Source of the DNA: Schmidtea polychroa
Lineage: Eukaryota
Assembly (NCBI GenBank): GCA_044892525.1
Contig: CM097885.1
Span: 190,216,001 to 190,280,000 of the forward strand
Direction of reading: 5' to 3'
Length of the DNA stretch: 64,000 nt
Below the pieces are notes generated by a model. It searched no databases, was not told the origin of the DNA, and saw nothing but the letters and a program-made list of their open reading frames with translations. The stretch's first letter is position 1, and each line of letters begins with the position of its first letter. The translations under genes were made by a program, and so were the position numbers. This document shows positions 16,814 through 42,439 of this stretch, in pieces.

Positions 16814-17906
16814 TACATTCCTAGTGTGAGCTATTGTATAGAGTTTTAATGTTGATTTTGATTGTGTACTGCATTTAAGTCAGAAAGAGTGCCTGCTTAC
16901 ACAGCCCCACTGTGACCGCTACGACAAGCCTTACTGTTGTATGGAGTCGACATTCCACTGTCGACCTATAATAAGTAGATTGAGTCATAACGGAGGGGTT
17001 TTATCGACTCAACTCCATGGCAGAACCATGAAGTGGACGACCTCCGATGACCGAACAGCAAAAATTACATATAGACACTGGCATAGATACTGCATGGCTG
17101 CGTGCTAGTGATTTTAAATTGTAGTTGCATAGTTGAACGCAGAACTGAATAGAGACGCAGATAAATCAATGCGTCTATGAACACTCTTACATTCAACACA
17201 AAAGCAAAAAATATTTAAAAATTGTTATAAATTGTAATCGAATCAATAAACATAAACATAGTATATAATAACAAAGGCTTACTATCGAGGGTTTTCTTCA
17301 AATGAATTTATTACAAAAAGTAATTTGGCATAAAGAATGTTTTTGTCACTAAAATGCATCGGTATATATACCTATTTTTGTGTGTGCAATACATGTGTAT
17401 GTATTGATGCATTAAAACAAACTCGAATTCTTTCTATTCTGGAATTTTCTATTTTTGATGATTTTAATGACAATTTTAGTGCCATAATTTTTATTCTTTA
17501 ATTATTTTTTGTTAAATTTGCCTCCATGATGGATTTGCAGCAATTCCAGAACATTCCATATTAAATTAAAGTTAATTTTTATTTTAATGATGTTTTTCCT
17601 AAATTCTTTTTTCAAATTTTTATTTTTAAAACTAATTAGTTTATTTTTATCAACTTTTGTTGATTTACATAACTTTTATGATGGATGCCGCCATTTTATA
17701 ATTTGTCTGGAATTTCTTCTAGAATTTAGTATTTTACTATATCATTATATATATCATTTTCTATATCATTCGAGTCTGTTTTCTGTACTTTTATGTTTCT
17801 CTGTTGTATTTGAGTTAGCTTTCTTGCAATACTTCTTGCATTTGTGAGATTTTAGTTAATTTCAGTGTTTTTATTTTTTGTTGTCTTTCTCTTTGTTAAT
17901 ATGGTT

Positions 17907-20106
17907 TATTTGATGTTTTTTATCTTTATATTTAACTAAACTTATTGCTATTATTGCGTGCTATGTACCAACACACTCTAGTCACAAAATAAAGTTTTGG
18001 GTCTAGAAATCAGTTCTAGCCCAACAAATTGAAGAATCTCTTTTGGTTCAGTTTTGGTCATTTTCTTGATGTTTGCATTTTTCGGTCGCAATAGTATAGT
18101 TTCTGCAGAAATCTCATACCATTCGTTTGATTCCCATAATCTAGGGCTATAATATAGAACTAGCGCTAAAATTGCTACTGTATTATTTATTTTTATTCTC
18201 TGAATTAATCTACTTCTATTTAAGCAAGGATGGGGAGTCGATTGGAAAACGATCGACTCCGAATCTCGACTCCTTTCAGTTTCATTAAGGCACTACTTGA
18301 TTCCGAAAATTGTTCACTGAAAAATTTGTTAACCTTTGAAATTTGATTGTCAAAATAAGTTAATTTTTTTAGATAGTTGTTCTACGTTACTCCGATAGAA
18401 GAAGCTTCAGGATATTNNNNNNNNNNNNNNNNNNNNNNNNNNNNNNNNNNNNNNNNNNNNNNNNNNNNNNNNNNNNNNNNNNNNNNNNNNNNNNNNNNNN
18501 NNNNNNNNNNNNNNNNNNNNNNNNNNNNNNNNNNNNNNNNNNNNNNNNNNNNNNNNNNNNNNNNNNNNNNNNNGTATCCAAGAAATTAGGTTAAACATAA
18601 TTAAATTAAAATAAAAATAAAACAAAACAAATTTAAGAATAAAATAGAATAGGATATAAGAAAAATAAAAAATTAGAAAATAAGAGTTAAAACAAAAAAT
18701 AAGGAAAATTGAAATAGGACAATAGAATGACAAAAAAATAACGTAAAATGTAGTAAATAATAAAGAAATTAAAGAAAATAAATAAAAAACACAATAAAAA
18801 TAAAGAAAATAGGAAAAAATAACTCAAAACCAAGAAAAATAAATTAAAGCAATAAAATTAAGCGGCACTCAATTCTGATTGGTCCGCACACATCAAAAAT
18901 TAATATATAAGGAAACACAAAAATTATAAACTTACAGTTAAACAACCAACTTTACAGGTAAGATAAATTTTAACAGTAACAGTTAAACAACCAACTTTAC
19001 AGGTAAACAGCAGCAACGTACGAGAATCAATCTAGAAACCAGGAGATATTGTCAAACAGTTAACAATCGACGTAAATTTCGAGTAACCATTTATTCGATT
19101 CGATACCTTCCGACTCAGCCTATAAATCTATACAAATTACTTGGTAAGGAATTTTCGATTTATGCTTTTATCTAAGTAATAGTAGTCATGTAATTTTATG
19201 AAATAATTATAATTTAAACTGAAAATAGTTTTTTCTTTTCGTTTGATTCCTAATGATAAATTTGCTAATTAGATGATTTAGTTATTTAATAAATGAATTA
19301 TTATGAACTTTTTATGATTGATTTTCATGCATTATTATTTAATGATTATAAATTTCCGAGAAACGTGGCGTTGAGAAACTCCATGTCATGGTATGAGGTG
19401 CCTTCGGGAGCTCAGCCGGTGGACATGGCGTTTTTCAATCACGCAGCTGATTCGGGCCGTAATGTGGGGGCTTCCTCACGGGTCCGTCGTTGAAGATGCG
19501 ACTAAAATATGTGAACAATACTGTAGAGAGATGGTAACTATCAAGCAATGGGAAGTGTAGTCATATGAGGAAAAATCTTGTTCGAGAGTTCGCACAGTGA
19601 TTGAGGGCGTCATACTATTGTCTTTGTCAAATTGAAATTGGTACTATCATCTGAAGATCTATACAGGATTTTCCGTTAAATCAGTCTGGACATCATTTGT
19701 AGCATATTATCTGCGTTCATGATTCCACTCGAAATTATTCCTGAAACCTTCAGCCTAAGGATCTTCACAACTGCTACTTTCATCATCTATATCCATCACG
19801 TGCAATCAACTTTGCTGCGTCTCTCTAAAAACCTACTTGTGGTGAATTGTGACAAACAAATAGTTCTCAAAAATAATAAACCATAAAATAATAAGGAATC
19901 TAGTCAGGAAAAATGTATTTATAAAAACAATCAAACATGTCATTCCCTTGTATATCGAATACCAAACGTTTGTGGCAACTGATGCAAAGTTGGGATGGGA
20001 GGTAACTGATCCGACAGACCCTCCATGGGAATAAAATCCGAGTCTTAGAGATGTCATAGAGGATGATGAAATATCCGCATTTCGTCGAATTGTATTTCCA
20101 GCGATA
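17907..20106 (+). repeat. Direct repeat copy 1 (of 29929-32034)
   Basis: Matches copy 2 from TATTTGATGTTTTTTATC to TATTTCCAGCGATA. Only two substitutions were noticed by eye. A 157-N gap replaces the 63-nt (TA)n-containing stretch of copy 2. Confidence 0.97.
18417..18573. other. Assembly gap (N run)
   Basis: Run of N, corresponding to 30439-30501 in the second repeat copy. Confidence 1.
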
Positions 20107-20227
20107 ATAATAAAATTAAAGATATAAATAAAGTAACTTTAATAATGGAGAAATAAGATAAAAGTAAAATAAAGTATAACGATTTAAAAGGAAAATGTTT
20201 GATGAAACAACCACTAATTAGTTATGT

Positions 20228-20740
20228 ATGACTAAAACATTTTTTTTAATAGACATGACGGAATTCGTGGACCAGATTCAACAACTAATCAACTTCATAA
20301 ACATCGAGAATAACTCCCTTAAAACGCTGACACAAAAGAGAGAAAGAATTAACATCATACTACTCCAAGCAATCGGGCAAACACCAGTCGTCCCCAACCA
20401 CATGTTATTAGCTGCAGGACTAAGTCACCCAGATGGGAAGATAAACCCTGAAACCGTGTATCAATGGTATCAAGAGAGATTGAACCACCCAGCATTAAAT
20501 CTTGATTATCAACGTATAAAAGATCCATTAAGTACCATATCAGATACAATCGAGCGAAAAATACAAGAAAAACTGACCCTACTACGAACTTGTCTTGCTT
20601 GTAAACGTCGTCCTATTCGCGTACTGTTCTTGCCGTGTGGACACCTCAGTCACTGCGAAGAATGTGTGAACAACTTAAAACGATGCACGATATGTAAGCA
20701 TGAGATAAAAGAAACTCATATGGTTTATTATGGTGAATGA
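20228..20740 (+). CDS. IAP-type C3HC4 RING protein without BIR domains (putative E3 ligase)
   Basis: C-terminal CLAC..VLFLPCGHLSHCEECVNNLKRCTIC..I (20591-20695) preceded by a coiled-coil-like IERKIQEKLTLLRT. AATAAA downstream near 20856. Confidence 0.85.
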   Translation: MTKTFFLIDMTEFVDQIQQLINFINIENNSLKTLTQKRERINIILLQAIGQTPVVPNHMLLAAGLSHPDGKINPETVYQWYQERLNHPALNLDYQRIKDPLSTISDTIERKIQEKLTLLRTCLACKRRPIRVLFLPCGHLSHCEECVNNLKRCTICKHEIKETHMVYYGE

Positions 20741-20963: not shown

Positions 20964-21918
20964 GTAAGGGTACAAACCGAGCCACCTTCGGGCGGTACGT
21001 TCTATCATACGAAAAACCAATTGGGAGGGGATAACCGATCAACCCAAGTAAGAAGCGTAGGGCGGGGTATCATCGCATATGATGAGAAGTTTCTGCGGCA
21101 TGTCTGATCACCATGCCAATGTAGAAATGGATCATCGCGATCGTCGTGCGTTTTGAGCAAGGGGGAAAGGGGACACACTCCCGAGCGGTAAAGATTAAGT
21201 CAACAAATTAAAAATAGACAGAGAAAATGATAATTCAGGGTAAAAGAGGAAAAGAGCAGTAGAAGCATGCAGAGTGGGGAATATTAAAGCCGAGCTGTTG
21301 AATAGTCCAGCCGGTCAAGGAAAATGAAAACTGAGCTGTGAAAAGTCCAGCCAGTTCGGAGATATTAAGATCGAGTTGTTGAATAGTCCAACCGATCAGA
21401 AGGAAGAAGATTGAGCTGTTGAATAGTGCCAGCCAGTCGTAAGATCGAGTTGTTGAATAGTCCAACCGATCAGAAAGAGGAAGATTGAGCTGTTGAATAG
21501 TGCCAGCCAGTCGTAAAGGCCTAGAAAAGCGAGAGATAGCAGTTGAGCTACAATGAGATAATATTTAAATTAATAGTGAAATGGAATATTAAAGCTAGCT
21601 AGAAACAAATTGAATGTAATTACGAAAATTTGAGTTTAGAGAGGAAATAAACGAGCTCGTGGAAAGGATGATAGGATTATAATGAAAAAGGAAGGGGAAG
21701 AAGGAAATGAATTAAAGAGATAATGGAAAATAAAGAATAGGTGAAATGATGATAATGAGTAAAGAGGAAAGTAACTAACTAATTAAAGGGATCCCAGTGA
21801 AGTAGAGAAACCCTACGAAATATTTTTGTTTTTGGTTAAATCGGGAAAATACATTTTTATTGGTTCCAGAGTAGAACCGAGCGAGATAATAGTAAATACG
21901 AAAAGTAAAATAGCGACA
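20964..21918 (+). mobile_element. Putative single LTR of the Gag-Env element
   Basis: Starts TGTAAGGG, contains a tandem enhancer-like array and AATAAA, and ends GCGACA directly followed by TGGCGC (weak PBS-like). It lies just upstream of the gag leader. There is no second copy in the window to confirm the ends. Confidence 0.4.
21292..21514 (+). repeat. Tandem array of GAG(C/T)TGTTGAATAGT(G)CCA(G/A)CC cores
   Basis: Six cores, including a 74-bp higher-order duplication (21367-21440 and 21441-21514). Confidence 0.9.
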
Positions 21919-22882
21919 TGGCGCAAAAGGATTAGAAAAACGAAGGGGGGTAACAAGCAGAGACCGACAACGACCTATTTATATTATAATTGATAGCGAA
22001 TAGATAATTATTACGACTTTATAGATAATTGTTACTACCCCATATAGATAATTTAAAATCGACGAAAAACGGGCTGATGGGAAATTATAACCCGCGGAAA
22101 GGATTTCACAAAAGATAGGGGAAGCACAAACAGAAACCTAAAAGGTGTCTGTGTTTGAATGTTGCAGAAAGAATGATGAAGTCGTGTAAGCAGATGCAAC
22201 ACGAGATCATTTTTTCATTTTAGATATCAAATCAAGCCAGCCAATCAAGCCAATCCAGAACCTGTACAAAAGGAATTCGAGGAAATCGACAATCGACCAA
22301 GAATAAATCCATTCAGAACCCGCACCAAGAAACCCAGCAACCGGAAGATTCCAGAACGGAGGAAGATACAGATAGCGACATCTCCAACTTCGAACGAATT
22401 ACCGATATATTCAACCTCATAGTATTAGCAGCCATCTGCCAAGGACTAGTAAATCCCCTCAGAATCTCAGTAGCAGATTCATACAGGATACTTTTCGAAG
22501 GAAACGCAATCAGATCCGAACTCTTCCGGTTCAGTAGCCGCTAATTACAAAGAAGCGTAAGAAAGGAATCACGGATAAACCCCATCTCAGATCATCAAGT
22601 AAGTCAGGCGACGTATTATTTTCAGGAGACGAATTACAACAACTCAAAAGAGGACGATCTATTAAACATCAAAGAGGAATATCACAAGGAGCAAGAAGAA
22701 CCAATCAAGTACCTATATTTGACCAAGAAAATCTCGGATACACCCCTAGTCGATCTCGAAGCAGGGAAAGTCTGTCCGATATCACTAACAGTTTAGCAAC
22801 GTCAACCGAAGAATTATCAGCCCAAAGTTTAGTCACATCGTTAGACAATTTAAAAGAAACAGACGAATCTAGAACACCAATC

Positions 22883-24847
22883 ATGACGAATGTCGTAAAA
22901 ACCGACGAGTATAAAGAGAAGTTCAGAGGAGAACCGTTCAATGGAAATGCAAACAAGTTAGCAACGTTCATAACAAATTTTGAAGTTTATATCACCGTGT
23001 GTGGATGGACACCCGAAGCAATTAGCAAAAGGATGCCGTTGTTTTTGTGCGATAGCGCATTAGAAGTATATCTAGAAGCTAAAGAGAGAGATACGAAATT
23101 AGAGAAGTGGGAAGATATCAAAACATTCTTGAAGAAAACCTTCGGAGCCAGTAAGCCAATCAACCAGGCGTGGGGCGAACTAGCAAATAGGAAACAAAGA
23201 GCGAACGAATCGATAACATTATATGCCAGTGAATTACGAAGGTTAGCGAAGAAAGCAATGAATGGGAAATTACCCGAGGAAAATCTGATCGGCTATTTCA
23301 TAGAGGGATTACGCCGAGAGGAGGTAAGAGCCTCAGTAGGTTGTCAAATGTGCAAAACGCTAGAGGAAGCCATAGACTGGGCTACAAGATGCGAGCTCCA
23401 CCTTCCAGCTCAAATGAATATTATGCAAGAGGATGGGAGGATAGCGACAGCAATAGCGAAAGCGGATAACGGAGATAACAACAATCAGGAACCGAAAATG
23501 AATCAATTTATACCAGGAGCGCATCAAATTTTTAAACCACCACAAGGACGATCAAATGGGAATAATGGTAATCGTAACAACTTGAATAATGAGAACAATT
23601 TTAATAATCGACGAAATATGAACGATAACAAGCAGTGCCGAACATGTGGTAAACCAGGACACTGGGACAGAGATTGTTATAGAAACGCAAATTGTAATCG
23701 TTGCGGACGACGTGGACATACGGAAAATAGATGCCAGTTGAGAGGTTGTTTTAACTGTGGTCAGCCAGGTCACATCTCCAGAGACTGCCGAGAAAGGGGC
23801 CAACCACAACGACCACCACAACGAAATACTAATTACATGTCGAACCCGCAACGACACAGTAACCCTAGCGAAGGAAAACAAATGAACGTTATGCAGGAAA
23901 TCTCACAAATGAAACAGATGATGCAACAAATGATGAGACCAAGACAAGAACCAGCACCACAACAAACCCAGAATATACGCATGATGAGGAGTACCGAAAA
24001 TCTCAATAGTTATGAAGTACATCAACATGTACAAGAATGGCAAAGACTACAGGCCGAGGAAGAGAGGATAAAACAAGAACGCAACCAACAACGACAAGAA
24101 CAACCATTGCGAATAAATATGATGAAGTTAGTAAAAGACATGAAAAGCCAGTACTGTTACAATTACGGGAAATACCCAAGGATAGTACCTATGACTGAAC
24201 CAGAAAAGGTAAAAGAAACAACAACGGAAACGAAAACAGAGAACTCAACCACGATCTTAAAAGGGAACCAGAGAATTAAGAAAATATTCTGGAAAAAGAT
24301 AAAAGATAAAATAGAAAAGAAACATGAAGAAACGGAAATAAGAATAAAAGAGGAAAACAACCAAAACAAGGAGCAAATCAGTCAGCTAAACCACCAAATG
24401 CTACAAGAATTGGAACCAGAAGAAACAACGATATTTGAAAGAAGGAAACTAAAGCGAGTACCACGGATGAGGAATCTGCGAATCAACATGATGAAAAGGA
24501 CAGAAGATGCGACATCGTCAGACGAAGAGGAAGACTATGTGAGCAGTTTGGGTGGAGAAATACTACAGCTAAACGAAACTAGCGAACCTCCAAAGGGGGA
24601 AATCAAAGAGGAAGAAAGCGAAAGCGAGATAACCAGTGAAAGTGAAGACGAGGATATCGAAATAAAGTTGAGAAAAGCGAGGGAGGAAACGATAAAACAA
24701 GTAGCTGAAATACTCCCGGTGGTAGTGAGAAACCAAGAGTTCATCGATGTAATACCATTCAGGCGATTCGTACAAAAAGTGATGACATTGGAAAGAAACG
24801 AGAAAGATTTAATACCAAGCGAAGAAAAGTTGATAATAAAAAAGTAA
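22883..24847 (+). CDS. Ty3/Gypsy-type Gag (capsid plus three CCHC knuckles) with a long Q/E/K-rich extension
   Basis: Retrotransposon capsid pattern (FNGN..F..NFE..W..L..F..L..RKQ..ES...Y..EL..L....FIEGL). Knuckles CRTCGKPGHWDRDC, CNRCGRRGHTENRC and CFNCGQPGHISRDC. The frame is open back to 22538. Confidence 0.95.
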   Translation: MTNVVKTDEYKEKFRGEPFNGNANKLATFITNFEVYITVCGWTPEAISKRMPLFLCDSALEVYLEAKERDTKLEKWEDIKTFLKKTFGASKPINQAWGELANRKQRANESITLYASELRRLAKKAMNGKLPEENLIGYFIEGLRREEVRASVGCQMCKTLEEAIDWATRCELHLPAQMNIMQEDGRIATAIAKADNGDNNNQEPKMNQFIPGAHQIFKPPQGRSNGNNGNRNNLNNENNFNNRRNMNDNKQCRTCGKPGHWDRDCYRNANCNRCGRRGHTENRCQLRGCFNCGQPGHISRDCRERGQPQRPPQRNTNYMSNPQRHSNPSEGKQMNVMQEISQMKQMMQQMMRPRQEPAPQQTQNIRMMRSTENLNSYEVHQHVQEWQRLQAEEERIKQERNQQRQEQPLRINMMKLVKDMKSQYCYNYGKYPRIVPMTEPEKVKETTTETKTENSTTILKGNQRIKKIFWKKIKDKIEKKHEETEIRIKEENNQNKEQISQLNHQMLQELEPEETTIFERRKLKRVPRMRNLRINMMKRTEDATSSDEEEDYVSSLGGEILQLNETSEPPKGEIKEEESESEITSESEDEDIEIKLRKAREETIKQVAEILPVVVRNQEFIDVIPFRRFVQKVMTLERNEKDLIPSEEKLIIKK

Positions 24848-26374
24848 ATGGAAAAAATGAAGCAGGTCGATACCACTCGATATGTAATAAAAATCGGAAC
24901 GAGTAGAGGACTTGAAAGAATGTGGATTAAAAATACAGTCACTGACGAACTTTTCGATTGGATACGAGAACATTTGGGAAGTTCGAGAAAGAAAGAATAT
25001 CTGTATCAATACCAAGGAGAACAGATCAAACCAGATATGCACTTAGTGGATGCACTAATATGGCCAGGAGAAACGCAAATACTGAAGTTGCACAAAGAAA
25101 AACAACCAGCTAACCTGTACGATTGGGCTAAAGATGCCAAGGCGGAATATGATTTTAATATCAAATTGAAATTAGAACAAATAAAGCAATGTACTCTGAG
25201 ACGAAACCTGGACAAGCTGATCAAACAAATTCAAGAACAAGTGGAAGATAACTGGGATTTACTCATCACCAGACGAGCCCCAGCCATGTACGAACTAATG
25301 AGCCGGTTGCAAGATACAGAATTGCTCCGAATGAGTGATTGGAGAACCATAAATTTGATCCACAAATATGGAAGGTTAAAGGAAACCCAGCCGCAGAGGT
25401 TGGAAATAACCATATGGTTACCGAACGAAGAGAAACGACGAATAAAAATGAGCAATCAGAGTACAGTGGATGATTTGGTATCAAAGATAAACCAAGAGAT
25501 AACGGAAAAGGTACGTAGCGAAAGTAGTGACGGTATGGTGGATGATGTAGTCATGATGTACGACAAAATAATATTACGAGCGGAAGACGACACCTCGTTG
25601 AGCGAAATGGGTATGTGGGACGATCATCAGATAATCAGGATAGTACCAATGGATGAATTTCGAACAAGAGATGTAACGTATCAAAAAGAAATACGAGACC
25701 GGATGAAAGCGTTATATCAAAAATCTACAGAAATAATTGAAATTCACCAACGATGGTTAAAAGAAAAGGAACTACAAGGAAAAATCACGAAACTAAGCAC
25801 CAGATCCTGCAGACGAACCCCATGGGAAAGAGTGTGGAATACAGAAAATAAGGAATGGGAAATCCGGAAAGGAATCTTCGTAGAAACAGACATTGGTGAG
25901 ACAGAAAGTGAATCGGAGGAAGAAGAAAAGGAACCTCCAGAATATGAAGAGGAAGCAAGGGGACAGACATCAGATGACGAAAGCGAGACGGACGTCACGT
26001 CAGAAAGCGAAAATGAAGCAAGACATATTCATGCAATGCGGAAAAAGGAACGTGAATATGCCGATATGGACGGCGAGGAAGCGACAGAAGCAAGAGAACG
26101 AGAAGAGAAAGAAAGATATAAACAATTAGGCGATATTTTAGCAATAGGAGCGAAAAATCAAAAACGCCAGGTAGTAGCGCTGGCTAATATCATCTTAAAG
26201 ACATCAGAGAACATCCACAATCTGAGAGGAATGGCAAAGGCAATAGAGGAATACCGGCAATATAATGAATATTCAGAACAGTTAGGAAATGGAGAAATCA
26301 GGAATGGGCACAAGACACCCAGGAGAGGTATCACATCCGAATCAAGTATCCGGACAAGAGCATTGAAGAACTAG
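24848..26374 (+). CDS. ORF2: two ubiquitin-like domains and an acidic region, in frame with Gag after a single TAA
   Basis: UBL-like segments RYVIKIG..QGEQIKPDMHL..ILKL (24878-25096) and RLEITIWLPNEEKRRIKMSNQSTVDDL..DDTSLSEMGM..IIRIV (25397-25648). Confidence 0.7.
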   Translation: MEKMKQVDTTRYVIKIGTSRGLERMWIKNTVTDELFDWIREHLGSSRKKEYLYQYQGEQIKPDMHLVDALIWPGETQILKLHKEKQPANLYDWAKDAKAEYDFNIKLKLEQIKQCTLRRNLDKLIKQIQEQVEDNWDLLITRRAPAMYELMSRLQDTELLRMSDWRTINLIHKYGRLKETQPQRLEITIWLPNEEKRRIKMSNQSTVDDLVSKINQEITEKVRSESSDGMVDDVVMMYDKIILRAEDDTSLSEMGMWDDHQIIRIVPMDEFRTRDVTYQKEIRDRMKALYQKSTEIIEIHQRWLKEKELQGKITKLSTRSCRRTPWERVWNTENKEWEIRKGIFVETDIGETESESEEEEKEPPEYEEEARGQTSDDESETDVTSESENEARHIHAMRKKEREYADMDGEEATEAREREEKERYKQLGDILAIGAKNQKRQVVALANIILKTSENIHNLRGMAKAIEEYRQYNEYSEQLGNGEIRNGHKTPRRGITSESSIRTRALKN

Positions 26375-29300
26375 AAGTGCATCCAACAACGAAAATTAGG
26401 GAATTAAAAAAGAAATTAGCATATGAAACCCCATTCCATCTGCAACTATTCGGAAAATCACTAGACGATAATGTAGACGTCGGAATAACACCCATGAGAT
26501 TAGAAGAGACTAATGTGTTAACAATGGCGGAAACGTTGGGAAAACCGTTGAAAAGGAAAAGCAAAATTAATAAACCAACAAAAGGTAGTTTGAGTACTCC
26601 AATTCCAAACAAAGCCCCAAGTAAATCTAATGAAACTGAAGAAGTTGAAGAGATTATCCTAGAAGATAGTTACGATGAACCAGGAGAAAGATCACCACTA
26701 TTAGTGAGATGGCCAACAGGAGCCGAAATATGGACCAACAACCAACCATCAACAAGTTATCAACAACCAACGAAACTGAACATCAAGGAAATCATCGACA
26801 ATACTACGGAAACCGAAACGGATGAACAATTCCAGAAGCAAAGAGAACCAACAAAAATAACACCGGAAGGTCAAACCGATAAAATAATAGATGAGTGGAA
26901 TGAGTGGCTGAGAAATAACGATAGTTCATTACCCAGAACGGATAACGAAAGAAATCCGCAATATGAAAATACCAGAGAAGCTGGAACGATGATGGAAAAA
27001 CGGGCAAAAGGAAGACCTAAGAAACAAGGAGAGAAATCTGAGTTCAAAACCAAGGAACAAGTAAAACAAGAACAAGGACAAGTTCGATTGGAAAAGTTAG
27101 ATAAAATAGTATGGGATCTAAAGGAAGCCCAACCAACGATCGGAAGAGGAGAAAAATGGATACGAGAATTGATCAAAGATATGTTAATAATAACAAATCC
27201 ACAACTTAGACGCTTGTGGCAACGGAAAGTAGCCAGTGTAGAAGCTAGACAATTATGGCACATCGTATCGGGGATAATCCCAAAGCTAATCAAAGAAAAA
27301 ACGAAAACTACCAAAACGGATTGGGATGAAACCAAGAGAGTGATTGAACAGCTCACGACAAATGCAAATGATGACGAACATCATCTAGTGGTAATCACTT
27401 ATTTGATGTATAATTTGATGGGACTAGCTGCGAGAAAAATACCAAATAAACAGTTTGCAAATCACGTGGAAATGACTGCTTCAGTCATTGAAAACACTAT
27501 TGAACCACATATTATTCGTGCCGGAGGATGGAAAAGACTTATACAAGCGCCACGAAAAAATGAGCAAGGAAGGTCGATGCAAGTTAGATTGAAAAAGCTG
27601 TTAAATGAAATAGAATGGGAACTACCGGTGAAAGACCCAGCAAGCAGAAAAGCATCAATAAATTCGTTAATGATGACTATGATGATATGGATGTTGTGCA
27701 CAAGTGGAGCAACGGGTTTTACCATCTACGATTGTGATAATATGATAATGAGAGATAAATACTCATTGAGAGATATAGAAGAATGCAGACAAGCATCACC
27801 CAACAAATTGGACATAGTAAGAACAAAAGTTACCTACCATGTATATCAAGAATCAGATTTCATCAGAACGCAAGCAAGGGAATGCGTAGTATCAAAAAAG
27901 GTACTCGCATATTACTGTGGACAATATTCGTATTCAACTCTTATACTACCCGGTCTGGATAAAGAAATCGTATCAATACAAAGAGAGGACTGTAAAGAGC
28001 TATTTAGAATCGGAGCGCTAAAAATGCATAACGGAGTGACGATACACGGACAAACTGGAATGATTAAAACCGAAAGTGTTTACGTATCCGGAAAAGTAAA
28101 GTCATCAGAAGGGTCATGTAACGGAGGTACGTATACGATCCGAGGCGAGGTAATATCGGGAGTAGTAGTAATCGAGTCCTATACGGTTGAATTAAAAGAA
28201 TATGAAGCGCAATTTGACGCAAATAATTACCAAATGAAGACCAACCCGGCATGTAGGGCTACAGAAAACGTATGCAGGACAGGAGTGTCAACTATAATCT
28301 ATGAAGCTAACACGCAAAAATGCCGACTCCAACTGTTAAAAAGTGCTTTATTCAATGAAGTAAAAGGAGAAATTTATGAGAACGAGAATGACGAGGATGG
28401 AAACGAAAGAGTGAGAATGCGAAATGGAAAACCAATGCCACCATCCCCCAGAGAAAAAAGACTCTCGACGCAGAAAACACCAACAGCATTAATAACCGAC
28501 GACCCAGATCTAGGTATGAGATTCATTAAAGAGAAAGAAACCACCAAATGCGACAGTATAGTATATAAAACCAATTACGCTGGTATCTATATGTCAAGAC
28601 AAATAATCGATAGAGCAGTGGGAAAGATAGCAGCGGAGGACGTGAAATTATACTTATATGCGAATAATAAAATGGATTTTTTATTTCATCGTGGACAAAC
28701 GACCCTACAAAAAGTATATTACGATCTGATACAAAACGATTGTTCATTGAATAAAGAAATACTGAAAATAAAGCTAGCTATTGCGATAACGCACCCGGAT
28801 AACACGATGCCATCACTCCCATTACCAGACGGACATTTTGGTAGAATGGTAGGAGAAGTGATGTACACATACCAGTGTACCAAGACGTATGCACGAATGC
28901 CAGAAAAATCCATACTACCCGAAAAGAGATGTGCAAATGAATTAGAAATCCGCTATAAAGGACAAAATCGATTCGTCCAACCCGTCACTAGAATTATGAA
29001 TCCAGTGGGTTTCTACCCAAATCTCTTTAACTGTTCTAATGCATACGGACCATTGTATGAAAGACCCGATGGAAAATGGATGATGTTACCGGGAAAAACC
29101 ATATCCGAGGAGCCCAAGAAATTTGGATTGATAGAACTCGCCACAGAGCTGGATTTCAAACCTATAGACGTGTCAAACGGTGGTATGTATTCCCCAGAAG
29201 ATTTAGAAACAGCTCGGCTTAACGTATTATTCCCAGCAAGGCGAGAATCTATTTTGTCCAATATGGTAACAATAACTGGGGGAACGAATTACCAATCAGG

Positions 29301-29961
29301 CCCAAACTATGAACTACTGCTGTCACCAGACCATTTCCAACAAGCAACCTCAAATATGATGAAAGCAATGTGGGGAAGATTCTTAGTTTTTGGACAAATG
29401 ATGGCCGGAATATTGGGGATCATACTCATAATTCAGATCGTCAGAGTAATACTAACACAAATGTTAGCCTGTTTTGATATATACAAGCGGGAAAAGAAAG
29501 TTAACTGGAAAATGATAGTAGGCTTTCTACCATTTTTAGCTAAAACCATGGTATTACATGGTCACTCAAAAGACATTCATCGGATAAAGCGATTGATCAA
29601 AATACTAACAAAGATTAAAGGAACCGACGAAGAAGTAGGCAGACGATTCCGGAAAGTAATGTACGATGAAGCAACAAGACGACAATTGAAAAAGAATAAG
29701 CCAAAATTTTTGGACCGATTCAGAAGTCAATCATCTAACAGCGATAGTGACGACGATAATAACGGGAACGATAAATGTCTATATCCAAACAGAAACCCAA
29801 ACAAAAAACCGATGGAAACAGCACCGTATTGGGAAAAGGAAAAGACAAACACCTGGATCGCCAACGGAAGCTATATACCACCGGATATCGTGGGACCACA
29901 AGCCGCTTTGACCATGACACAGAATATGTATTTGATGTTTTTTATCTTTATATTTAACTAA
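26269..29961 (+). CDS. ORF3: ubiquitin-like domain, Bcl-2-like domain, signal peptide and chuvirus-like class III fusion glycoprotein
   Basis: The frame is open from 26269. UBL at 26326-26526. BH1/BH2-like helices ending IEPHIIRAGGWKRLIQ (about 27148-27552). Hydrophobic signal ending GATG|FTIYDC (27718). Cys-rich ectodomain, REKR site, and TM segment WGRFLVFGQMMAGILGIILII from 29371. The last residues come from the flanking repeat. Confidence 0.85.
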   Translation: MFRTVRKWRNQEWAQDTQERYHIRIKYPDKSIEELEVHPTTKIRELKKKLAYETPFHLQLFGKSLDDNVDVGITPMRLEETNVLTMAETLGKPLKRKSKINKPTKGSLSTPIPNKAPSKSNETEEVEEIILEDSYDEPGERSPLLVRWPTGAEIWTNNQPSTSYQQPTKLNIKEIIDNTTETETDEQFQKQREPTKITPEGQTDKIIDEWNEWLRNNDSSLPRTDNERNPQYENTREAGTMMEKRAKGRPKKQGEKSEFKTKEQVKQEQGQVRLEKLDKIVWDLKEAQPTIGRGEKWIRELIKDMLIITNPQLRRLWQRKVASVEARQLWHIVSGIIPKLIKEKTKTTKTDWDETKRVIEQLTTNANDDEHHLVVITYLMYNLMGLAARKIPNKQFANHVEMTASVIENTIEPHIIRAGGWKRLIQAPRKNEQGRSMQVRLKKLLNEIEWELPVKDPASRKASINSLMMTMMIWMLCTSGATGFTIYDCDNMIMRDKYSLRDIEECRQASPNKLDIVRTKVTYHVYQESDFIRTQARECVVSKKVLAYYCGQYSYSTLILPGLDKEIVSIQREDCKELFRIGALKMHNGVTIHGQTGMIKTESVYVSGKVKSSEGSCNGGTYTIRGEVISGVVVIESYTVELKEYEAQFDANNYQMKTNPACRATENVCRTGVSTIIYEANTQKCRLQLLKSALFNEVKGEIYENENDEDGNERVRMRNGKPMPPSPREKRLSTQKTPTALITDDPDLGMRFIKEKETTKCDSIVYKTNYAGIYMSRQIIDRAVGKIAAEDVKLYLYANNKMDFLFHRGQTTLQKVYYDLIQNDCSLNKEILKIKLAIAITHPDNTMPSLPLPDGHFGRMVGEVMYTYQCTKTYARMPEKSILPEKRCANELEIRYKGQNRFVQPVTRIMNPVGFYPNLFNCSNAYGPLYERPDGKWMMLPGKTISEEPKKFGLIELATELDFKPIDVSNGGMYSPEDLETARLNVLFPARRESILSNMVTITGGTNYQSGPNYELLLSPDHFQQATSNMMKAMWGRFLVFGQMMAGILGIILIIQIVRVILTQMLACFDIYKREKKVNWKMIVGFLPFLAKTMVLHGHSKDIHRIKRLIKILTKIKGTDEEVGRRFRKVMYDEATRRQLKKNKPKFLDRFRSQSSNSDSDDDNNGNDKCLYPNRNPNKKPMETAPYWEKEKTNTWIANGSYIPPDIVGPQAALTMTQNMYLMFFIFIFN

Positions 29962-32034
29962 ACTTATTGCTATTATTGCGTGCTATGTACCAACACACTC
30001 TAGTCACAAAATAAAGTTTTGGGTCTAGAAATCAGTTCTAGCCCAACAAATTGAAGAATCTCTTTTGGTTCAGTTTTGGTCATTTTCTTGATGTTTGCAT
30101 TTTTCGGTCGCAATAGTATAGTTTCTGCAGAAATCTCATACCATTCGTTTGATTCCCATAATCTAGGGCTATAATATAGAACTAGCGCTAAAATTGCTAC
30201 TGTATTATTTATTTTTATTCTCTGAATTAATCTACTTCTATTTAAGCAAGGATAGGGAGTCGATTGGAAAACGATCGACTCCGAATCTCGACTCCTTTCA
30301 GTTTCATTAAGGCACTACTTGATTCCGAAAATTGTTCACTGAAAAATTTGTTAACCTTTGAAATTTGATTGTCAAAATAAGTTAATTTTTTTAGATAGTT
30401 GTTCTACGTTACGCCGATAGAAGAAGCTTCAGGATATTCAAATGTATTCATCTTATAAATAAATATATATATATATATATATTGTTGGGCTGAGTCGAAG
30501 GGTATCCAAGAAATTAGGTTAAACATAATTAAATTAAAATAAAAATAAAACAAAACAAATTTAAGAATAAAATAGAATAGGATATAAGAAAAATAAAAAA
30601 TTAGAAAATAAGAGTTAAAACAAAAAATAAGGAAAATTGAAATAGGACAATAGAATGACAAAAAAATAACGTAAAATGTAGTAAATAATAAAGAAATTAA
30701 AGAAAATAAATAAAAAACACAATAAAAATAAAGAAAATAGGAAAAAATAACTCAAAACCAAGAAAAATAAATTAAAGCAATAAAATTAAGCGGCACTCAA
30801 TTCTGATTGGTCCGCACACATCAAAAATTAATATATAAGGAAACACAAAAATTATAAACTTACAGTTAAACAACCAACTTTACAGGTAAGATAAATTTTA
30901 ACAGTAACAGTTAAACAACCAACTTTACAGGTAAACAGCAGCAACGTACGAGAATCAATCTAGAAACCAGGAGATATTGTCAAACAGTTAACAATCGACG
31001 TAAATTTCGAGTAACCATTTATTCGATTCGATACCTTCCGACTCAGCCTATAAATCTATACAAATTACTTGGTAAGGAATTTTCGATTTATGCTTTTATC
31101 TAAGTAATAGTAGTCATGTAATTTTATGAAATAATTATAATTTAAACTGAAAATAGTTTTTTCTTTTCGTTTGATTCCTAATGATAAATTTGCTAATTAG
31201 ATGATTTAGTTATTTAATAAATGAATTATTATGAACTTTTTATGATTGATTTTCATGCATTATTATTTAATGATTATAAATTTCCGAGAAACGTGGCGTT
31301 GAGAAACTCCATGTCATGGTATGAGGTGCCTTCGGGAGCTCAGCCGGTGGACATGGCGTTTTTCAATCACGCAGCTGATTCGGGCCGTAATGTGGGGGCT
31401 TCCTCACGGGTCCGTCGTTGAAGATGCGACTAAAATATGTGAACAATACTGTAGAGAGATGGTAACTATCAAGCAATGGGAAGTGTAGTCATATGAGGAA
31501 AAATCTTGTTCGAGAGTTCGCACAGTGATTGAGGGCGTCATACTATTGTCTTTGTCAAATTGAAATTGGTACTATCATCTGAAGATCTATACAGGATTTT
31601 CCGTTAAATCAGTCTGGACATCATTTGTAGCATATTATCTGCGTTCATGATTCCACTCGAAATTATTCCTGAAACCTTCAGCCTAAGGATCTTCACAACT
31701 GCTACTTTCATCATCTATATCCATCACGTGCAATCAACTTTGCTGCGTCTCTCTAAAAACCTACTTGTGGTGAATTGTGACAAACAAATAGTTCTCAAAA
31801 ATAATAAACCATAAAATAATAAGGAATCTAGTCAGGAAAAATGTATTTATAAAAACAATCAAACATGTCATTCCCTTGTATATCGAATACCAAACGTTTG
31901 TGGCAACTGATGCAAAGTTGGGATGGGAGGTAACTGATCCGACAGACCCTCCATGGGAATAAAATCCGAGTCTTAGAGATGTCATAGAGGATGATGAAAT
32001 ATCCGCATTTCGTCGAATTGTATTTCCAGCGATA
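29929..32034 (+). repeat. Direct repeat copy 2 (of 17907-20106)
   Basis: Near-identical to copy 1, 2106 bp. Confidence 0.97.
30483..31052 (+). mobile_element. About 570-bp element bounded by 19-bp inverted repeats (solo LTR or MITE), inserted next to (TA)n; duplicated at about 18574-19124
   Basis: TGTTGGGCTGAGTCGAAGGGTATC at the left and GATACCTTCCGACTCAGCC at the right. Internal ATTGG box, TATATAA, and a duplicated ACAGTTAAACAACCAACTTTACAGGTAA. Confidence 0.6.
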
Positions 32035-32315
32035 GTTAATGAATTTCCAACTCGATATAGACAGTGGGCATGTTGATGATGATAAAATCCATGAGGGGAG
32101 TAGAAATTATAGCTTGAATAGTTGACCAGTTTGTCTACGAAACGAATTACATCCAGTAATAGCGGTACGCACCATCTGCCTATGCAAAATTTCCACGAGA
32201 GATAGAAATTCAACACGGTGTAATATAACATCTGATGATTCATGCCTGCTGCCAAATAGGATAAGAGTCTCACGAAGTGAGTACCCGCACACATGTGTAA
32301 ATGCACACATTGCAA
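31761..32315 (-). CDS. Orphan ORF (184 aa), His/Tyr-rich with a hydrophobic C-terminus
   Basis: Open frame that crosses the right end of repeat copy 2 and is truncated in copy 1. No family recognised. Confidence 0.35.
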   Translation of the reverse strand: MQCVHLHMCAGTHFVRLLSYLAAGMNHQMLYYTVLNFYLSWKFCIGRWCVPLLLDVIRFVDKLVNYSSYNFYSPHGFYHHQHAHCLYRVGNSLTIAGNTIRRNADISSSSMTSLRLGFYSHGGSVGSVTSHPNFASVATNVWYSIYKGMTCLIVFINTFFLTRFLIILWFIIFENYLFVTIHHK

Positions 32316-33133
32316 GTTCTAATAGCCAAAGTCCACATGCTGGTGCTCACCAATAATAACACGGATATCACTAGCCATAATTCTACGAGTCTATCTTCCA
32401 GGTGATACGTTCCTTGAGATCGCATCGTCATCTAACCCGATAGTAGATAATTCACCGCGAACGGCTAACTTGAGAAAAGTCCACCGGGTGTGTCAGATAA
32501 AAATCTCGGCTATTTACCGAAAGCACTAGACATGAGTGATGATAACACGAGTCACCAACAACTCAATAATTAATTTTAAAATAGTAACTAAATGTGAGAT
32601 TTGAAAACAAAATTATAATAAATTATAGACAATATAATCGAAAGCCTAAATAAAATACAAACAAAATGCAATTCAATTAATCCAAGTCTATTACTGGGAC
32701 TGCAAAAATTTAGTATTTTTACTTAATGATGAATTAAAACCAACTTATCTAATTATCTATAAAATCATTATAATGATTAGCTAAATTTTCACTTAGTAAT
32801 TATTTAGTTCGGGTTGAATTTTCAATGCTATTTACCCTCTTCAAGAAACATTTCCGTCATCAATAATCCCTCTTAAACATGTAATTTTCATTTTCTTTAA
32901 TAATGATGGACAATCTTCGTTAAGTAAAGCCTAATGTTTTCAGTTGATTTTCTAGTGGATAAATACCCAGAGTACGCATAGGTTGATGGCATCGGAAATC
33001 CCTCTTGATAAAAATCCGTTTTCCTTTTCCTGTAAAAATGTCTTATATTGATTAACGAATGGTGGCGAAAAATGATGATTTTCTAAATTTGATCTATCCC
33101 ATTTAGTGTTATTATTCTTCTTAGCTAGCAGAC

Positions 33134-33905
33134 ATGTTACCCACTGCAAAGACCGTCCTCAGACCCTGTTTTTCTTGTTCCGACAAGAACGCGATAATCA
33201 AGGACCTGCAGACCCAGATCGGACGGTACAAAAAGAAGATAGACGAGTTAGAGGGGACATGGTTTAGTCCCGCCCAGATGAAAGAGACCCAAAAGAAATT
33301 ACACCGAAGTGAACATTGCCGGGACGCTCTAATCTCCGAGAGTCGTGCCCAAAGAAGTTTGATCAAGGAGCAGTCCGAGGCGCTGCATAAAGTGTACATC
33401 CAGGCCGCGGCAACTAGAAAGAGAGTGAAAATTCCCATCGGTGAAGCCGACAATCTCTTTCCGGCCCACCATGATACTTCTGCCAAATCGTCGCTCCCTT
33501 CGAAAAAACCTTGCCGGCCGTGCGTAGAAACACAACTCTCGCCAGGGCAACTAGAGGTGGTTTTTGTTGGAAATAGTCGGGTACTGCCTAACGTCGCCTC
33601 TACATCGGCGGTAGCCCCAAACAATTCATCGACCAACAAGCCAAAGCGTCGGCAGCTATCAAGGGCTGAACGGAAAAGGAAACAGCGTGAGCGAATAGCT
33701 GCGAAGCAGCCCAAGCAACTGCCGGACCTCGAGAGTAATGTCAATAACGTCCCTGCTGTAATTGACCTAACAACAAGGCCACTGGGGCGGATCATATCTG
33801 CCACTGGGGCGGATCATATCTGCCGCTGGGGTGACGTGGGAGGAAAACGCCTCCGAATTCTTCGATTTGGATGAGTTACTCGCCGACTCCGAGTGGGAAA
33901 AATGA
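33134..33905 (+). CDS. Orphan nuclear-like protein (CxxC, coiled coil, basic NLS-like stretch, VIDLT, acidic tail), frameshifted by a 22-bp duplication
   Basis: GC-rich 246-codon ORF. Removing one CCACTGGGGCGGATCATATCTG copy (33779-33800 / 33801-33822) gives the ending AAGVTWEENASEFFDLDELLADSEWEK* at 33905. Confidence 0.55.
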
Positions 33906-34438
33906 GGATTTTCCCGCGAGATGACCTCAGCCGTCGGAGAGTCCTGAATCAACTAATATCGTGTCTTGTCCTTGTGTTTTCTCTTATTCTAATTATGATG
34001 TATAAATTACGACGCGCCTGTATTGCAATGTTTGAAATAAACAATTTTTGTCTGTATACGGTTTTGTTTTTCGTTCATAAGGGATTTAAAATTGAGTGGT
34101 AAATAGCATTGAGGTTTTGAGATTCGGAGAATATTGTTCAATTTGCAATCCAAACCAAGGGTATGGCGACAGGGTGACAGAATGTGTAGACGTAAGTCCT
34201 TCTATCGGCTGTCAGGGTTAGGAAGTCGGGGTCTCAGTGAGGAGTAGTCCGAAGGAGGTGGCTCACCTGCTCACTGGCACCTCGCCATCATAGCACAGTT
34301 CCAACGTGAAGCAATTCACGGGTGCTATGTTGGATTATAGATTATGCACGGGCCCTGCTCGGGGTGACACAGTAATGACAGGTATAATCGTAACGGGCGT
34401 TCATCCTCTAGGCTAGAAAGTTGAACTAAGGGTGGTCA

Positions 34439-34569
34439 NNNNNNNNNNNNNNNNNNNNNNNNNNNNNNNNNNNNNNNNNNNNNNNNNNNNNNNNNNNNNN
34501 NNNNNNNNNNNNNNNNNNNNNNNNNNNNNNNNNNNNNNNNNNNNNNNNNNNNNNNNNNNNNNNNNNNNN
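34439..34569. other. Assembly gap (N run)
   Basis: Run of N following a GC-rich, LTR-like stretch (about 34140-34438). Confidence 1.
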
Positions 34570-37953: not shown

Positions 37954-39150
37954 CATAGCTCTCCAACTGAAACGAACTCTATCAAGAAGTTGACTTTTAC
38001 CTTTTCGTCTCCAATTATCTGTCTTCGAAAAATTACCTCATCTCCTTGATATGAAATCGATATTTTCTTGGTGTATGGTAGTGTCTGTAATAACCATCGT
38101 GATACAAAATATGTACCCCAACTCCGAAGTACATATTGGTTTACGACTACTCATAACGAGTAATCCTGTTGTGCTGTTAGATCATCGAAAACTTTCACTC
38201 TCTCATCGACATTTAGTTCGAATGTTGAACAATATTCTCCACAAAATGAGAAACTAAACCTTGTTCTATTATCGCAAGTGGTTGATATTTGAAAACTATT
38301 ATGCGTTCGCGCAAAGTGCAAATGTTCAATTTGTACTGCTACTGGATAAAACATTGCTGGTACTGCAGCCTGTATTGTAGTCATTAGTAAAATACAGATA
38401 ACTAAGAACGTGACGCCTTTCGGTACACCTCTAGACCGTAATGGTTATCGGTTCTTCTAAGTATCCCATATAATAGGTTTCGGTTTCTCCTTGAGTTTTG
38501 GAATTTCTGTCTTTTGTTTACTCAATTGTTCTTTATCCTGAACTGGTACTGTACACTTTTACATCGATTTGTATGTATCATAATAGGTTCCGCTTTCCGA
38601 TTAGCTACTAACTATAATATCAAATTCGTGTCAGTGGTTTTTAGGACTTCATATGGACCTTTGAAATTTCGCATTGACTTTGGGGATAAGCCTTTCTTAT
38701 TGTAATGGCTTTCCAACATAACTTAATCTCCCACCAATATTTGCTGATCTTTTGCTTTGCTATTTCGACGCTTCTTGATTATATTTGATGTTGAGACTAG
38801 CTTTTGTCCATGTCTCTTGCATTCGCTCTCTCATCTCCAAGAGATAGTCCACTTGGTCTAGGTATTGTGTAGCTTTCGGATAGAACAACAAATCTACCGG
38901 CATTTTACTCTGTCTTAAATACATCAGGTAAAATAGAGTTTGTCCCATACCTCCGTGAACTGCATTTCGATATGCGAATAGACATGATGGAATATGTACA
39001 TCTCAATCAGTTTGGGCTGAATTGACATATGATGCGATCATATTAGCTAAAGTTCCGTTGAACCTTTCGACTAACCCATTAGTTTGTGGGTGATATGGCG
39101 ATATGTTTAGTTTCATAATACCAAAACAGCTCTTTGTCGCATTGCGTACC
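37954..39150 (-). pseudogene. Ty3/Gypsy integrase remnant plus a downstream signal-peptide ORF interrupted by the hAT
   Basis: SPYHPQTNGLVERFNGTL..LFAYRNAVH. The downstream frame VTFLVICILLMTTIQAAVP.. (one internal stop at 38151) continues in frame across the hAT TSD into 30238-30000. Confidence 0.85.
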
Positions 39151-39189
39151 AGATCAAATGGAACAATACAATACCGCATGAAAATGAAA

Positions 39190-39719
39190 ATAGCGAAAAC
39201 CAGCTCCCAGTATACATAAACACAGATAAACTCTATCAACCAAATCCTGATGCAGAATTAAATTCAACACTCTCAAAGGTCTGTCACAAAATCACGGAGT
39301 TAGTTGAGAAGGAAAGAAGAAAACCACATCTCTCAAACCTAACGAAAGACGAACAGGCAATATTAAAATCCCTTAAAAAGAAACCGTACGTTTACTTACC
39401 AAGTGACAAGGGGGGAGAATTTTGCATTATAGAGAAGAATCGTTACTGTGAAGCTGGTTACGAACACCTCGGCAACATCGAAACATACAAGAAAGTCAGC
39501 CGCATGTCACCAAACACCATCGAAATGAAGATCAACAAAGTATGGAAAGCCATAGCTTTGGAAATGAGGCTCAACAACAGAATAACCAACAGCTTCGTCA
39601 CAAAAAATTCTGATCTTCCTAACTTCTACCACCTAATTAAAACTCACAAAGAGGGTCCTGGTATCAAAATTAGACCTATAGTGTCCAACAAAAATGGACC
39701 AATAGTGAAGTTGGCTTGA
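39190..39719 (+). pseudogene. Penelope-like element RT N-terminal fragment
   Basis: SNLTKDEQAILKSLKK..PSDKGGEFCII..Y, and PNFYHLIKTHK..IRPIVS..P..KLA, typical of the pre-RT region of PLEs. Confidence 0.85.
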
Positions 39720-41330: not shown

Positions 41331-42340
41331 TTCTCAATGCTGTCTTGAGAGTTCTGTGAAATCTTTCAACTTTGCCATTGCATTGAGAATGGTATGGTGT
41401 TGTGTGTCTGAAATCAATGTTGCGCTTTTGACAGAATTCCCTGAATGTGGACGATATGAATTGCTTACCATTGTCTGTAACCATTATTTCAGGGGCTCAA
41501 TACCGAGCTACCCACTCGTTTTCTACTGTTCTGGTTACTAAACTGCTTGTGATATCAGAGATAGGAATTGCTTCTGGTCGTGAGGTGTTTGTCAATTATA
41601 GTAAGCATGAATCTTTTATTATTTACTGGTGGGAGTGGGCCGACGATGTCGATATGAATGACTTTGAATGTTTCTCCTTCTGGAAGTTTCTTCAAGGTTG
41701 ACTTTGTATGATGCCCCGTCACTTTATTTCTTTGAGATTTTTCCTAATTTGTAAACAATTTGTTCTTGCGTACAGGGCCACGCACATTTTGATGATATTA
41801 GTTTTATTGTCCCATTTGCTCCTGGGTGGCAAAAATTATGAAGCCGCTGGAATTCCCTGATTTGGAATTGTTCTGGCAGTATTATTCGAAGGGAGCTAGT
41901 AGACATATCCACTAGAATTCCGTCATCATCTATACTTATTTTAAATGAGTGATTTGGCTTTAAATTTTGGGCGAATGATTGTTGTCTTTGTTGATGAATT
42001 ATTTCACTTTTTGGCATCGTCAAGATCTTAGCAGTATTGAGAGTATTGTTAACTGAATTAGTTTGTCTTGATAGGAAATCTGCAACAATGTTGTCTTTCA
42101 CTTTAATGTGAATTATCTTTGTATCGAATTCGTTTATAAACTGGATCCATCGCCATTGTCTATTGGATGTATTTTTCATTGTAATTATATATGCTAATGG
42201 CTTGTGATCGGTTAGTAGTTGGAATATGTTGCCATCAGGGTGATATTTGAAGTTTTTGATAGCTAAATAGGCAGCCAATAGTTCTCGGTCAAATGTTGAA
42301 TATCTTTGTTCAGTTTGGTTGAACTTTCTAGAGAAAAAAA
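41170..42340 (-). pseudogene. Ty3/Gypsy pol remnant (RNase H plus integrase)
   Basis: FFSRKFNQTEQRYSTFDRELLAAY, LLTDHKPL, NIVADFLSR, H..CHPG, VTDNGKQF and YHSQCNGKVERFHRTLK. Confidence 0.93.
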
Positions 42341-42439
42341 CTGATTGGTTTAAGTTTACCTTCTGCCGTTCTGTGATTAAGACTTGCACTAATTCCAATG
42401 TCCGATGCATCCGTACATACAATGAATATGCGTTGCGAA

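Follow-up and report, generated by a model that had tools for sequence, protein, structure and literature searches.

A Bcl-2-like domain fused in frame to Env in Burro-type giant retroelements of Schmidtea polychroa, possibly tethered to the endoplasmic reticulum by the Env signal

We analyzed a stretch of 64,000 nucleotides (nt) from Schmidtea polychroa, hereafter the window (GenBank assembly GCA_044892525.1, contig CM097885.1, positions 190,216,001 to 190,280,000, forward strand), in which positions 27148-27552 (+) encode a Bcl-2-like segment. This segment belongs to a Burro-type giant Ty3/Gypsy element, in a copy that is defective and has lost its 3' part. In intact members of the family the segment is part of a single polyprotein of 4732 amino acids (aa), where it precedes, in frame, a fusion glycoprotein (Env) of chuvirus-like type, and it very probably has a Bcl-2 fold. 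To the reading as a whole we give slightly less than even weight: a Burro domain of Bcl-2 fold, likely tethered to the endoplasmic reticulum (ER) by the Env signal, that probably damps death or stress signalling. The proposal concerns the element family and not the window locus, whose copy is broken and lacks Pol.

The Bcl-2-like domain and its place in the polyprotein

Translation of 27148-27552 gives a stop-free segment of 135 aa that includes both motifs quoted in the initial annotation of this DNA, and its coordinates agree with those of the model residues that superpose on Bcl-2 folds (20-164, 27127-27561). The segment sits within a 1230-aa frame (26269-29961, +) that continues into a Monjiviricetes-type fusion glycoprotein. 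The initial annotation took the two for a precursor in two parts, Bcl-2-like protein and Env; the window shows half of a defective copy, and the true precursor is much larger, a 4732-aa polyprotein that runs from Gag to integrase. A search for the element in the window's own genome (781 Mb) gave 718 candidates, the best 150 of which were scored, all 90-100% identical. Counted by eye, the domain is stop-free in 143 of these 150 best-scoring copies, and in approximately 58 of the 150 it lies within a frame of exactly 4732 aa. Five intact copies were fetched, and each has the 4732-aa open reading frame (ORF), a span of ~29.7-30.5 kb and long terminal repeats (LTRs) that align over 3823-4162 nt at 99.9-100% identity; two of the five show 4-bp target duplications (by eye). 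Pfam matches in one frame of an intact copy follow the order Gag, zinc knuckles, Bcl-2-like (weak), fusion glycoprotein, protease (PR), reverse transcriptase (RT), RNase H (RH), integrase (IN) and ankyrin (Ank_2, E 3e-17, after IN). With a weak ubiquitin-like domain (UBL) and the Env transmembrane segment (TM) included, the full order is Gag, UBL, Bcl-2-like, hydrophobic stretch, Env, TM, PR-RT-RH-IN, ankyrin. The polyprotein is preceded by a RING ORF and followed, inside the element, by a TRAF-like ORF.

The arrangement extends to further lineages, which came to light when the genome was scanned with a Bcl-2 profile (909 candidates, best 150 scored) and in follow-up searches. We name these B, B2, C and D; in the Bcl-2-like domain they are ~20% identical to the window lineage (A). 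Lineage B has a 3053-aa frame with a Gag-like knuckle, the Bcl-2-like domain, Env and Pol, and the order domain, linker, hydrophobic signal, Env is common to four element lineages. Among 16 loci tested, the hydrophobic stretch is present in 15, the order GGW, linker, hydrophobic stretch, xxxYDC is found in 15, and the distance from GGW to the inferred cleavage site is 62-70 residues in 15. Protein database searches with the domain returned one credible match, the Burro-like fragment P0002, which is 56% identical over part of the domain; P0004, a repetitive protein from a representative search, was judged spurious.

At the same position, the sister lineages match the Bcl-2 profile PF00452 with E values of 5e-7 to 0.022 (28.5-30.6 bits in lineage B), and one unbroken copy (L086) reaches 32.2 bits, above the gathering cut-off of 31.4. 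A profile of 11 Burro copies, built without cellular proteins, matches Bcl-xL over the Bcl-2 homology regions BH1-BH2 (E 1.8e-4), a result that is not wholly independent because lineage B came from a Bcl-2 profile scan. This profile gave 113 matches at E <= 1; among the 60 listed, 59 are Bcl-2-family chains, mostly redundant Bcl-xL constructs. The alignment of the BH1-BH2 region with Bcl-xL is gapless over 72-73 positions, and it bears out the initially annotated positions of BH1 and BH2 as well as the loss of the canonical NWGR. When the Burro alignment is set against the Bcl-xL alignment, BH1 falls at 27370-27381 (+), where DDEH replaces NWGR, and the BH2-like motif ending in GGW lies at 27499-27531 (+), and all 11 aligned copies share its P, I, G, G, W and L. 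When the ORF was shuffled 10000 times, the pattern [WH]IxxxGGW, picked after the motif had been seen, arose in 3 of the shuffled sequences and GGW by itself in 520. Profile-profile comparison (hhalign) with seven Bcl-2-like loci of the genome scored 93.8%, E 1.8e-7; an alignment of 1554 columns gave a diluted profile with a best E of 0.0097.

Predicted structures point in the same direction. AlphaFold2 (AF2), run on a 22-row alignment of Burro sequences only, placed eight helices in the domain (27070-27567, +, which encloses 27148-27552), with a predicted local distance difference test (pLDDT) of 59 and a predicted template modelling score of 0.50. In a VIA-align search of 48,161 chains, Bcl-2-fold proteins occupied all of the top 15 places, with Z scores of 7.8-10.8 in a range (below ~13 for helical proteins) that can mean a common arrangement. 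The best match was A179L (Z 10.8, root-mean-square deviation 3.8 over 136 residues), and A52 (Z 8.6), N1 (Z 7.5) and B14 (Z 7.0) were also among the matches; unrelated helical rows begin at Z 7.7 and span 61-84 residues, whereas the Bcl-2-fold rows span 111-140. All 34 rows listed by Foldseek against PDB are Bcl-2-family proteins (probability 0.89-1.0, E 0.04-0.18), and the top viral match is a Bcl-2-like protein of lymphocystis virus (E 0.22). Foldseek found nothing with an AF2 model made from the single sequence (pLDDT 46), and ESM Atlas gave no usable match. The convergence of profile, profile-profile and fold results supports a Bcl-2 fold, which we consider very probable on these models. 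The fold first proposed from the letters of the window was returned by the Burro profile match to Bcl-xL, by hhalign and by the structural matches.

The domain is maintained as a protein under purifying selection, with ratios of nonsynonymous to synonymous substitution (dN/dS) of 0.03-0.12. Between the window and locus L097, dN/dS is 0.027 in the domain core, 0.070 in Env and 0.056 in the upstream spacer; between lineage B and two B2 copies it is 0.11-0.12 in the core, 0.035 in Env, 0.17 in the spacer and 0.37 in the linker. These are pairwise values from four computed pairs with dS near saturation, and the comparison of the window with L099 was unusable (saturated or misaligned).

A tree of six Burro and ten other Bcl-2-like loci has support values of 75/82 and 79/79 and long branches, too weak a basis for naming a donor. 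In phmmer searches, the closest Bcl-2-like loci to the Burro domain (L057, L068-L073, L064; L130) include a multi-copy family of the L068 type. One copy of this family lies beside Polinton-like ORFs (integrase-chromo and Endonuclease_7 matches under the cut-off, with polymerase and capsid assigned by eye), a possible sign that mobile elements have exchanged the domain.

The Env junction, the groove and competing explanations

The Env ectodomain (27718-29367, +) belongs to the Monjiviricetes (chuvirus-like) fusion glycoprotein family, the window Env matching PF24664 with E 6.5e-69 (233 bits, cut-off 27); against PDB sequences the ectodomain had no match at E <= 1. It is followed by a TM at 29368-29475 (+; Kyte-Doolittle 19-mer 2.53) and a weaker hydrophobic patch at 29512-29556 (1.31). 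In all four lineages the match to PF24664 opens within the hydrophobic stretch, at profile position 3 in the window (27664) and at positions 4-7 in the other three; free viral G proteins carry their signal in this place. In the window this putative internal Env signal occupies 27658-27717 (+), with a signal-peptidase site predicted after 27717, and the residue before xxxYDC (the inferred -1 position) is G or A in all 15 loci printed. The fusion of the domain to the Env signal is indeed in frame, as initially annotated, with PF24664 starting at the hydrophobic stretch; "directly upstream" does not hold, for a linker of ~30 residues with a likely amphipathic helix intervenes before 27658-27717. 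This helix (27574-27618, +) corresponds to residues 165-176 of the low-confidence model, and a like pattern is seen by eye in lineages B-D. The hydrophobic stretch of the window begins ~42 residues past the BH2 Trp; in Bcl-xL this distance is ~22 residues. Contigs from four of the 12 listed runs contain no GT..AG joint between the domain and Env, and such multi-copy contigs cannot show splicing or expression.

From this layout we propose the following processing. The hydrophobic stretch would work as an internal signal and direct Env to the ER lumen, signal peptidase would cut before the xxxYDC start of Env, and the Env TM would bring Pol back to the cytosol, steps that we hold with good confidence. 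One internal signal and one TM would leave Gag and Pol cytosolic and Env luminal, and the stretch would stay on the upstream product, which the element's protease may then trim from Gag. Whether this product retains the signal at its C-terminus as an anchor, and for long enough to matter, we judge to be evenly balanced; tail anchoring of the Bcl-2-like product would be topologically plausible, and an anchor so formed would sit in the ER, not the mitochondrion. Held on the cytosolic ER face, the domain would probably damp host cell-death or stress signalling through a non-standard groove. Host apoptosis or stress machinery is a moderately probable target, in keeping with the RING, TRAF and ankyrin cargo of the element and with the B-IAP reported from Burro1; its engagement by classical sequestration of BH3 is rather improbable. 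A more elaborate version, which we offer as speculative, gives one hydrophobic helix three jobs, namely Env signal, tether of the Gag precursor to the Env-bearing ER, and then tail anchor of a Bcl-2-fold protein with an acidic groove.

The state of the groove bears on the last step. The NWGR equivalents are DDEH in the window, NRDK in lineage B, NGD[KR] in lineage C and [SD]ENR in lineage D, so that no Burro lineage retains the Gly (D, E or N takes its place) and H stands for the Arg in the window lineage; in lineages B-D the Arg position is still basic. By eye, the domain contains no BH3-like motif. Both the Gly and the Arg matter for BH3 binding (PMC9027176), yet vaccinia N1, which has acidic residues in place of GR, is reported to bind Bad, Bax and Bid (PMC2885619, excerpt). 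Classical BH3 binding by the Burro domain is accordingly doubtful, with NWGR lost, yet possible, as N1 is reported to bind with acidic residues in that place. A host gene that looks Bak-like by eye has exons carrying a BH3-like motif at L058:1239-1692 and in L060; a second copy lies ~19 kb away. A complex prediction for the domain and the Bak-like BH3 exon of L058 scored 0.01 with the alignment unused, and has no bearing either way on binding.

Several observations weigh against an ER-tethered Bcl-2-fold regulator. The window segment alone matches PF00452 with E 0.037 and 15 bits, below the cut-off, and phmmer of this segment against PDB sequences found no Bcl-2 protein. No Foldseek match reached E 0.001, and the confidence of the model is modest; to these add the limits already given on the Z scores and on the independence of the Burro profile. 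The best 15-residue Kyte-Doolittle mean in the stretch of the window lineage is weak, 1.49, and the uncharged run in lineage B is short, 11-14 residues; a weak or short hydrophobic stretch fits a cleaved signal better than a lasting anchor. The replacement of the NWGR Gly throughout, and of the Arg in the window lineage, counts on the same side. Finally, the lineage A upstream spacer is about equally constrained, with dS close to saturation, and the domain is therefore not set apart by selection.

One alternative, which we consider possible though not favoured, is a Bcl-2-fold scaffold without affinity for BH3 motifs, which instead disturbs innate or ubiquitin signalling in the manner of poxvirus A52 and B14, which interfere with innate signalling. 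This would fit either localization. The altered BH1 and the lack of a BH3-like motif agree with such a scaffold, as do the presence of A52, N1 and B14 among the fold matches and the TRAF, ankyrin, RING and UBL cargo that the element also carries. However, BH2 is invariant, a basic residue persists at the Arg position in lineages B-D, and the best fold matches bind BH3, although rows within 1 Z of each other are tied.

Somewhat less probable is a soluble product, in which a domain of Bcl-2 fold would be released through cleavage within or after the linker, by the protease of the element or an intramembrane protease of the host, and the hydrophobic stretch would serve Env only. At flavivirus C-prM, alphavirus structural and hepatitis C virus core-E1 junctions, the hydrophobic tail of a cytosolic protein doubles as the signal of the next glycoprotein; the proteins are unrelated to those studied here, and the tail is often removed later. 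The capsid signal-anchors of flaviviruses and the hepatitis C virus core are cut in that way, and such junctions are often cut again. The linker is long and variable (dN/dS 0.37 between B and B2) and the hydrophobic core is short, both as expected of such release, but between lineage A subfamilies the linker is 85-88% identical despite saturated synonymous sites. An AT-hook-like motif ahead of the domain is what one might expect if the protein were soluble or nuclear, and N1 is a cytosolic Bcl-2-fold protein with no tail (PMC2885619, excerpt). The start of the lineage A signal also fits a domain-border pattern, as one of nine matches in 4732 aa; this pattern is self-devised and loose, however, and it falls elsewhere in lineage B (one match in 3053 aa) and, by eye, is not found at the signal start in C or D.

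That the domain was repurposed as a structural, matrix-like part that tethers the Gag precursor to the Env membrane, with no role in host signalling, seems unlikely. Its fixed place between Gag/UBL and the Env signal in four lineages, together with ~20% identity between lineages, would suit such a part, but the invariant BH2 residues exceed the needs of a spacer, and we know of no structural role of a Bcl-2 fold. A chance likeness (a generic helical bundle with a fortuitous GGW) could draw on the sub-threshold window match, the empty PDB sequence search, the failure of the single-sequence model and the Foldseek E values, but it is largely refuted and very improbable given the converging results, the longer span of the Bcl-2-fold rows and the independent annotation of a BCL2-like motif in print (PMC6431247).

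The window copy and its surroundings

The internal region of the window copy is ~94% identical to intact copies across 21291-29931, and its defects are a premature stop at 24845-24847, a frameshift near 26281-26284 and an end at 29931, before the protease. All of its parts lie on the + strand. The 5' part of a Burro-type LTR (18574-20106) starts under a stretch of N (18417-18573) and ends early, at the internal-region junction; it is 100% identical over 1533 nt to 30502-32034 and 73-88% identical to the LTRs of intact copies. An accessory ORF (20222-20740), also present in intact copies, ends in a RING finger (C3HC4_3, PF13920, E 8.2e-12) and has no BIR domain match in Pfam. A 74-nt tandem repeat in the 5' leader (21281-21516) has fewer copies here than in intact elements. 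The polyprotein starts with Gag and its CCHC knuckles (22538-24847; PF03732 E 4.9e-10, PF00098 E 4.2e-10), collinear with aa 1-1250 of an intact ORF and closed by the premature stop, and its middle part (24848-26374) is separated from the downstream frame by the frameshift. Just before the Bcl-2-like domain lies a basic GRP motif (26998-27024, by eye, without a profile match), which we take to resemble an AT-hook; it precedes the domain in the window, in lineage B and in P0002, and is degenerate in lineage C. The weak ubiquitin-like domain (26329-26532; PF00240, E 0.04-0.08, under the cut-off) agrees in position with the Ubi2/SUMO-like motif reported ahead of BCL-2 in Burro (PMC6431247).

A near-perfect direct repeat of 2.1 kb (17898-20106 and 29923-32034), made up of flank and the 5' LTR part, flanks the truncated internal region on both sides, and where its second copy begins the element stops (29931), short of PR-RT-RH-IN. 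The repeat arose either through a local rearrangement in recent times or in the assembly. We rejected the idea that its copies are the two LTRs of the element, as true LTRs are ~4 kb and begin inside the repeat. An apparently near-complete LTR (30482-34428, +) starts with TG after a (TA)n tract and its end enters a stretch of N (34439-34569); no Burro internal sequence lies behind it. Within the LTR, an ORF of 249-260 aa (33125-33874 in the window) is open across LTR subfamilies that are ~70% identical, with no Pfam match above cut-off. Elsewhere the window contains a reversed fragment (9-496, -) 74% like the element's 3' accessory region, a DUF4371-like ORF (4217-5545, -), a decayed gypsy RNase H/integrase region (38655-42551, -) and a Tc1-like DDE transposase inside inverted repeats (61969-62676).

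Intact elements also carry, 3' of the polyprotein, a whole TRAF-like ORF with RING, coiled coil and MATH (L101:130-1563), and three coiled-coil or membrane-type ORFs of no clear family. A TRAF/MATH gene in L031 was discarded as cargo because it lies outside the element. Pfam found no BIR match in ORF1 and the scanned accessory ORFs (a subset of the short ORFs), and no match of any kind in the PR-RT spacer, the reported place of a dUTPase-like domain. After integrase and ankyrin, a second signal-like stretch and TM close the polyprotein (aa 4395-4419 and 4658-4688 of the ORF in L033), with a counterpart in lineage B (aa 2771-2798 and 2989-3018); the presence of this pair in both lineages suggests a second small membrane protein.

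Relation to known systems and possible significance

Elements of the Burro/GYPSM1 type were reportedly described by Jurka in 2007. Burro/GYPSM1 elements of planarians are gypsy-like LTR elements of >30 kb, with an ORF1 of 4,873 aa in S. mediterranea and 5,140 aa in D. tigrina (PMC6431247). The same source (Arkhipova & Yushenova 2019) reports a Ubi2/SUMO-like motif before BCL-2, an Env between BCL2 and PR that matches mononegavirus glycoproteins, a dUTPase-like domain between PR and RT, and ankyrin, MATH/TRAF and BIR domains, and it names Grohme et al. 2018 as the source of the BCL2-like motif. Hence the BCL2-Env-PR arrangement has been in print since 2018-2019, and the novelty implied by the initial annotation falls away. 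Our elements share with Burro/GYPSM1 a length of ~30 kb, long LTRs, one polyprotein (4732 aa here), Gag with CCHC, a BCL2-like domain (preceded by a putative Ubi-like one), an in-frame Env before PR, and ankyrin. They differ in that MATH/TRAF is found in a whole TRAF-like ORF 3' of the polyprotein, neither in ORF1 nor upstream, and in having a RING ORF with no BIR match in the ORFs scanned. The assignment to the Burro type is made on architecture and should be read as probable.

What we add is structural support for a motif annotated from sequence, four divergent lineages, purifying selection, the loss of the BH3 signature and a model of processing. PMC6431247 is silent on the signal, anchoring and groove state of the Burro domain, and our literature search found no statement of a tail-anchor model or an altered groove, though Grohme et al. 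2018 and Lee et al. 2026 may hold such statements.

Compared with cellular Bcl-xL and Bcl-2, the BH1-BH2 region aligns, but NWGR is lost, there is no clear BH3, and identity in the structural alignment is 8-14%. The predicted fold resembles those of viral Bcl-2 proteins, namely African swine fever virus A179L, KsBcl-2, BHRF1 and vaccinia N1, A52 and B14 (Z 7.0-10.8), and N1 shares with the window domain the acidic residues in place of GR (PMC2885619, excerpt). The viral proteins are encoded by stand-alone genes of large DNA viruses, whereas the Burro domain sits within a retroelement polyprotein and would owe any anchor to the Env signal.

Burro elements already offer one case of anti-apoptotic cargo. 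The B-IAP region of Burro1 reportedly shields stem cells against apoptosis (Lee et al. 2026, as related in an excerpt of PMC13465017); it comes from the same family, but it is a RING and BIR region and not the Bcl-2-like domain. Burro expression is under PIWI control (PMC8532177). If the anchor model is true, a retroelement would make a captured host death regulator membrane-targeted without a tail of its own, and the survival benefit that Burro is reported to give planarian stem cells would have, in the Bcl-2-like domain, a second module open to testing. The element would then produce an ER-resident modulator of cell death at a fixed 1:1 ratio with a fusogen, a second survival module beside B-IAP.

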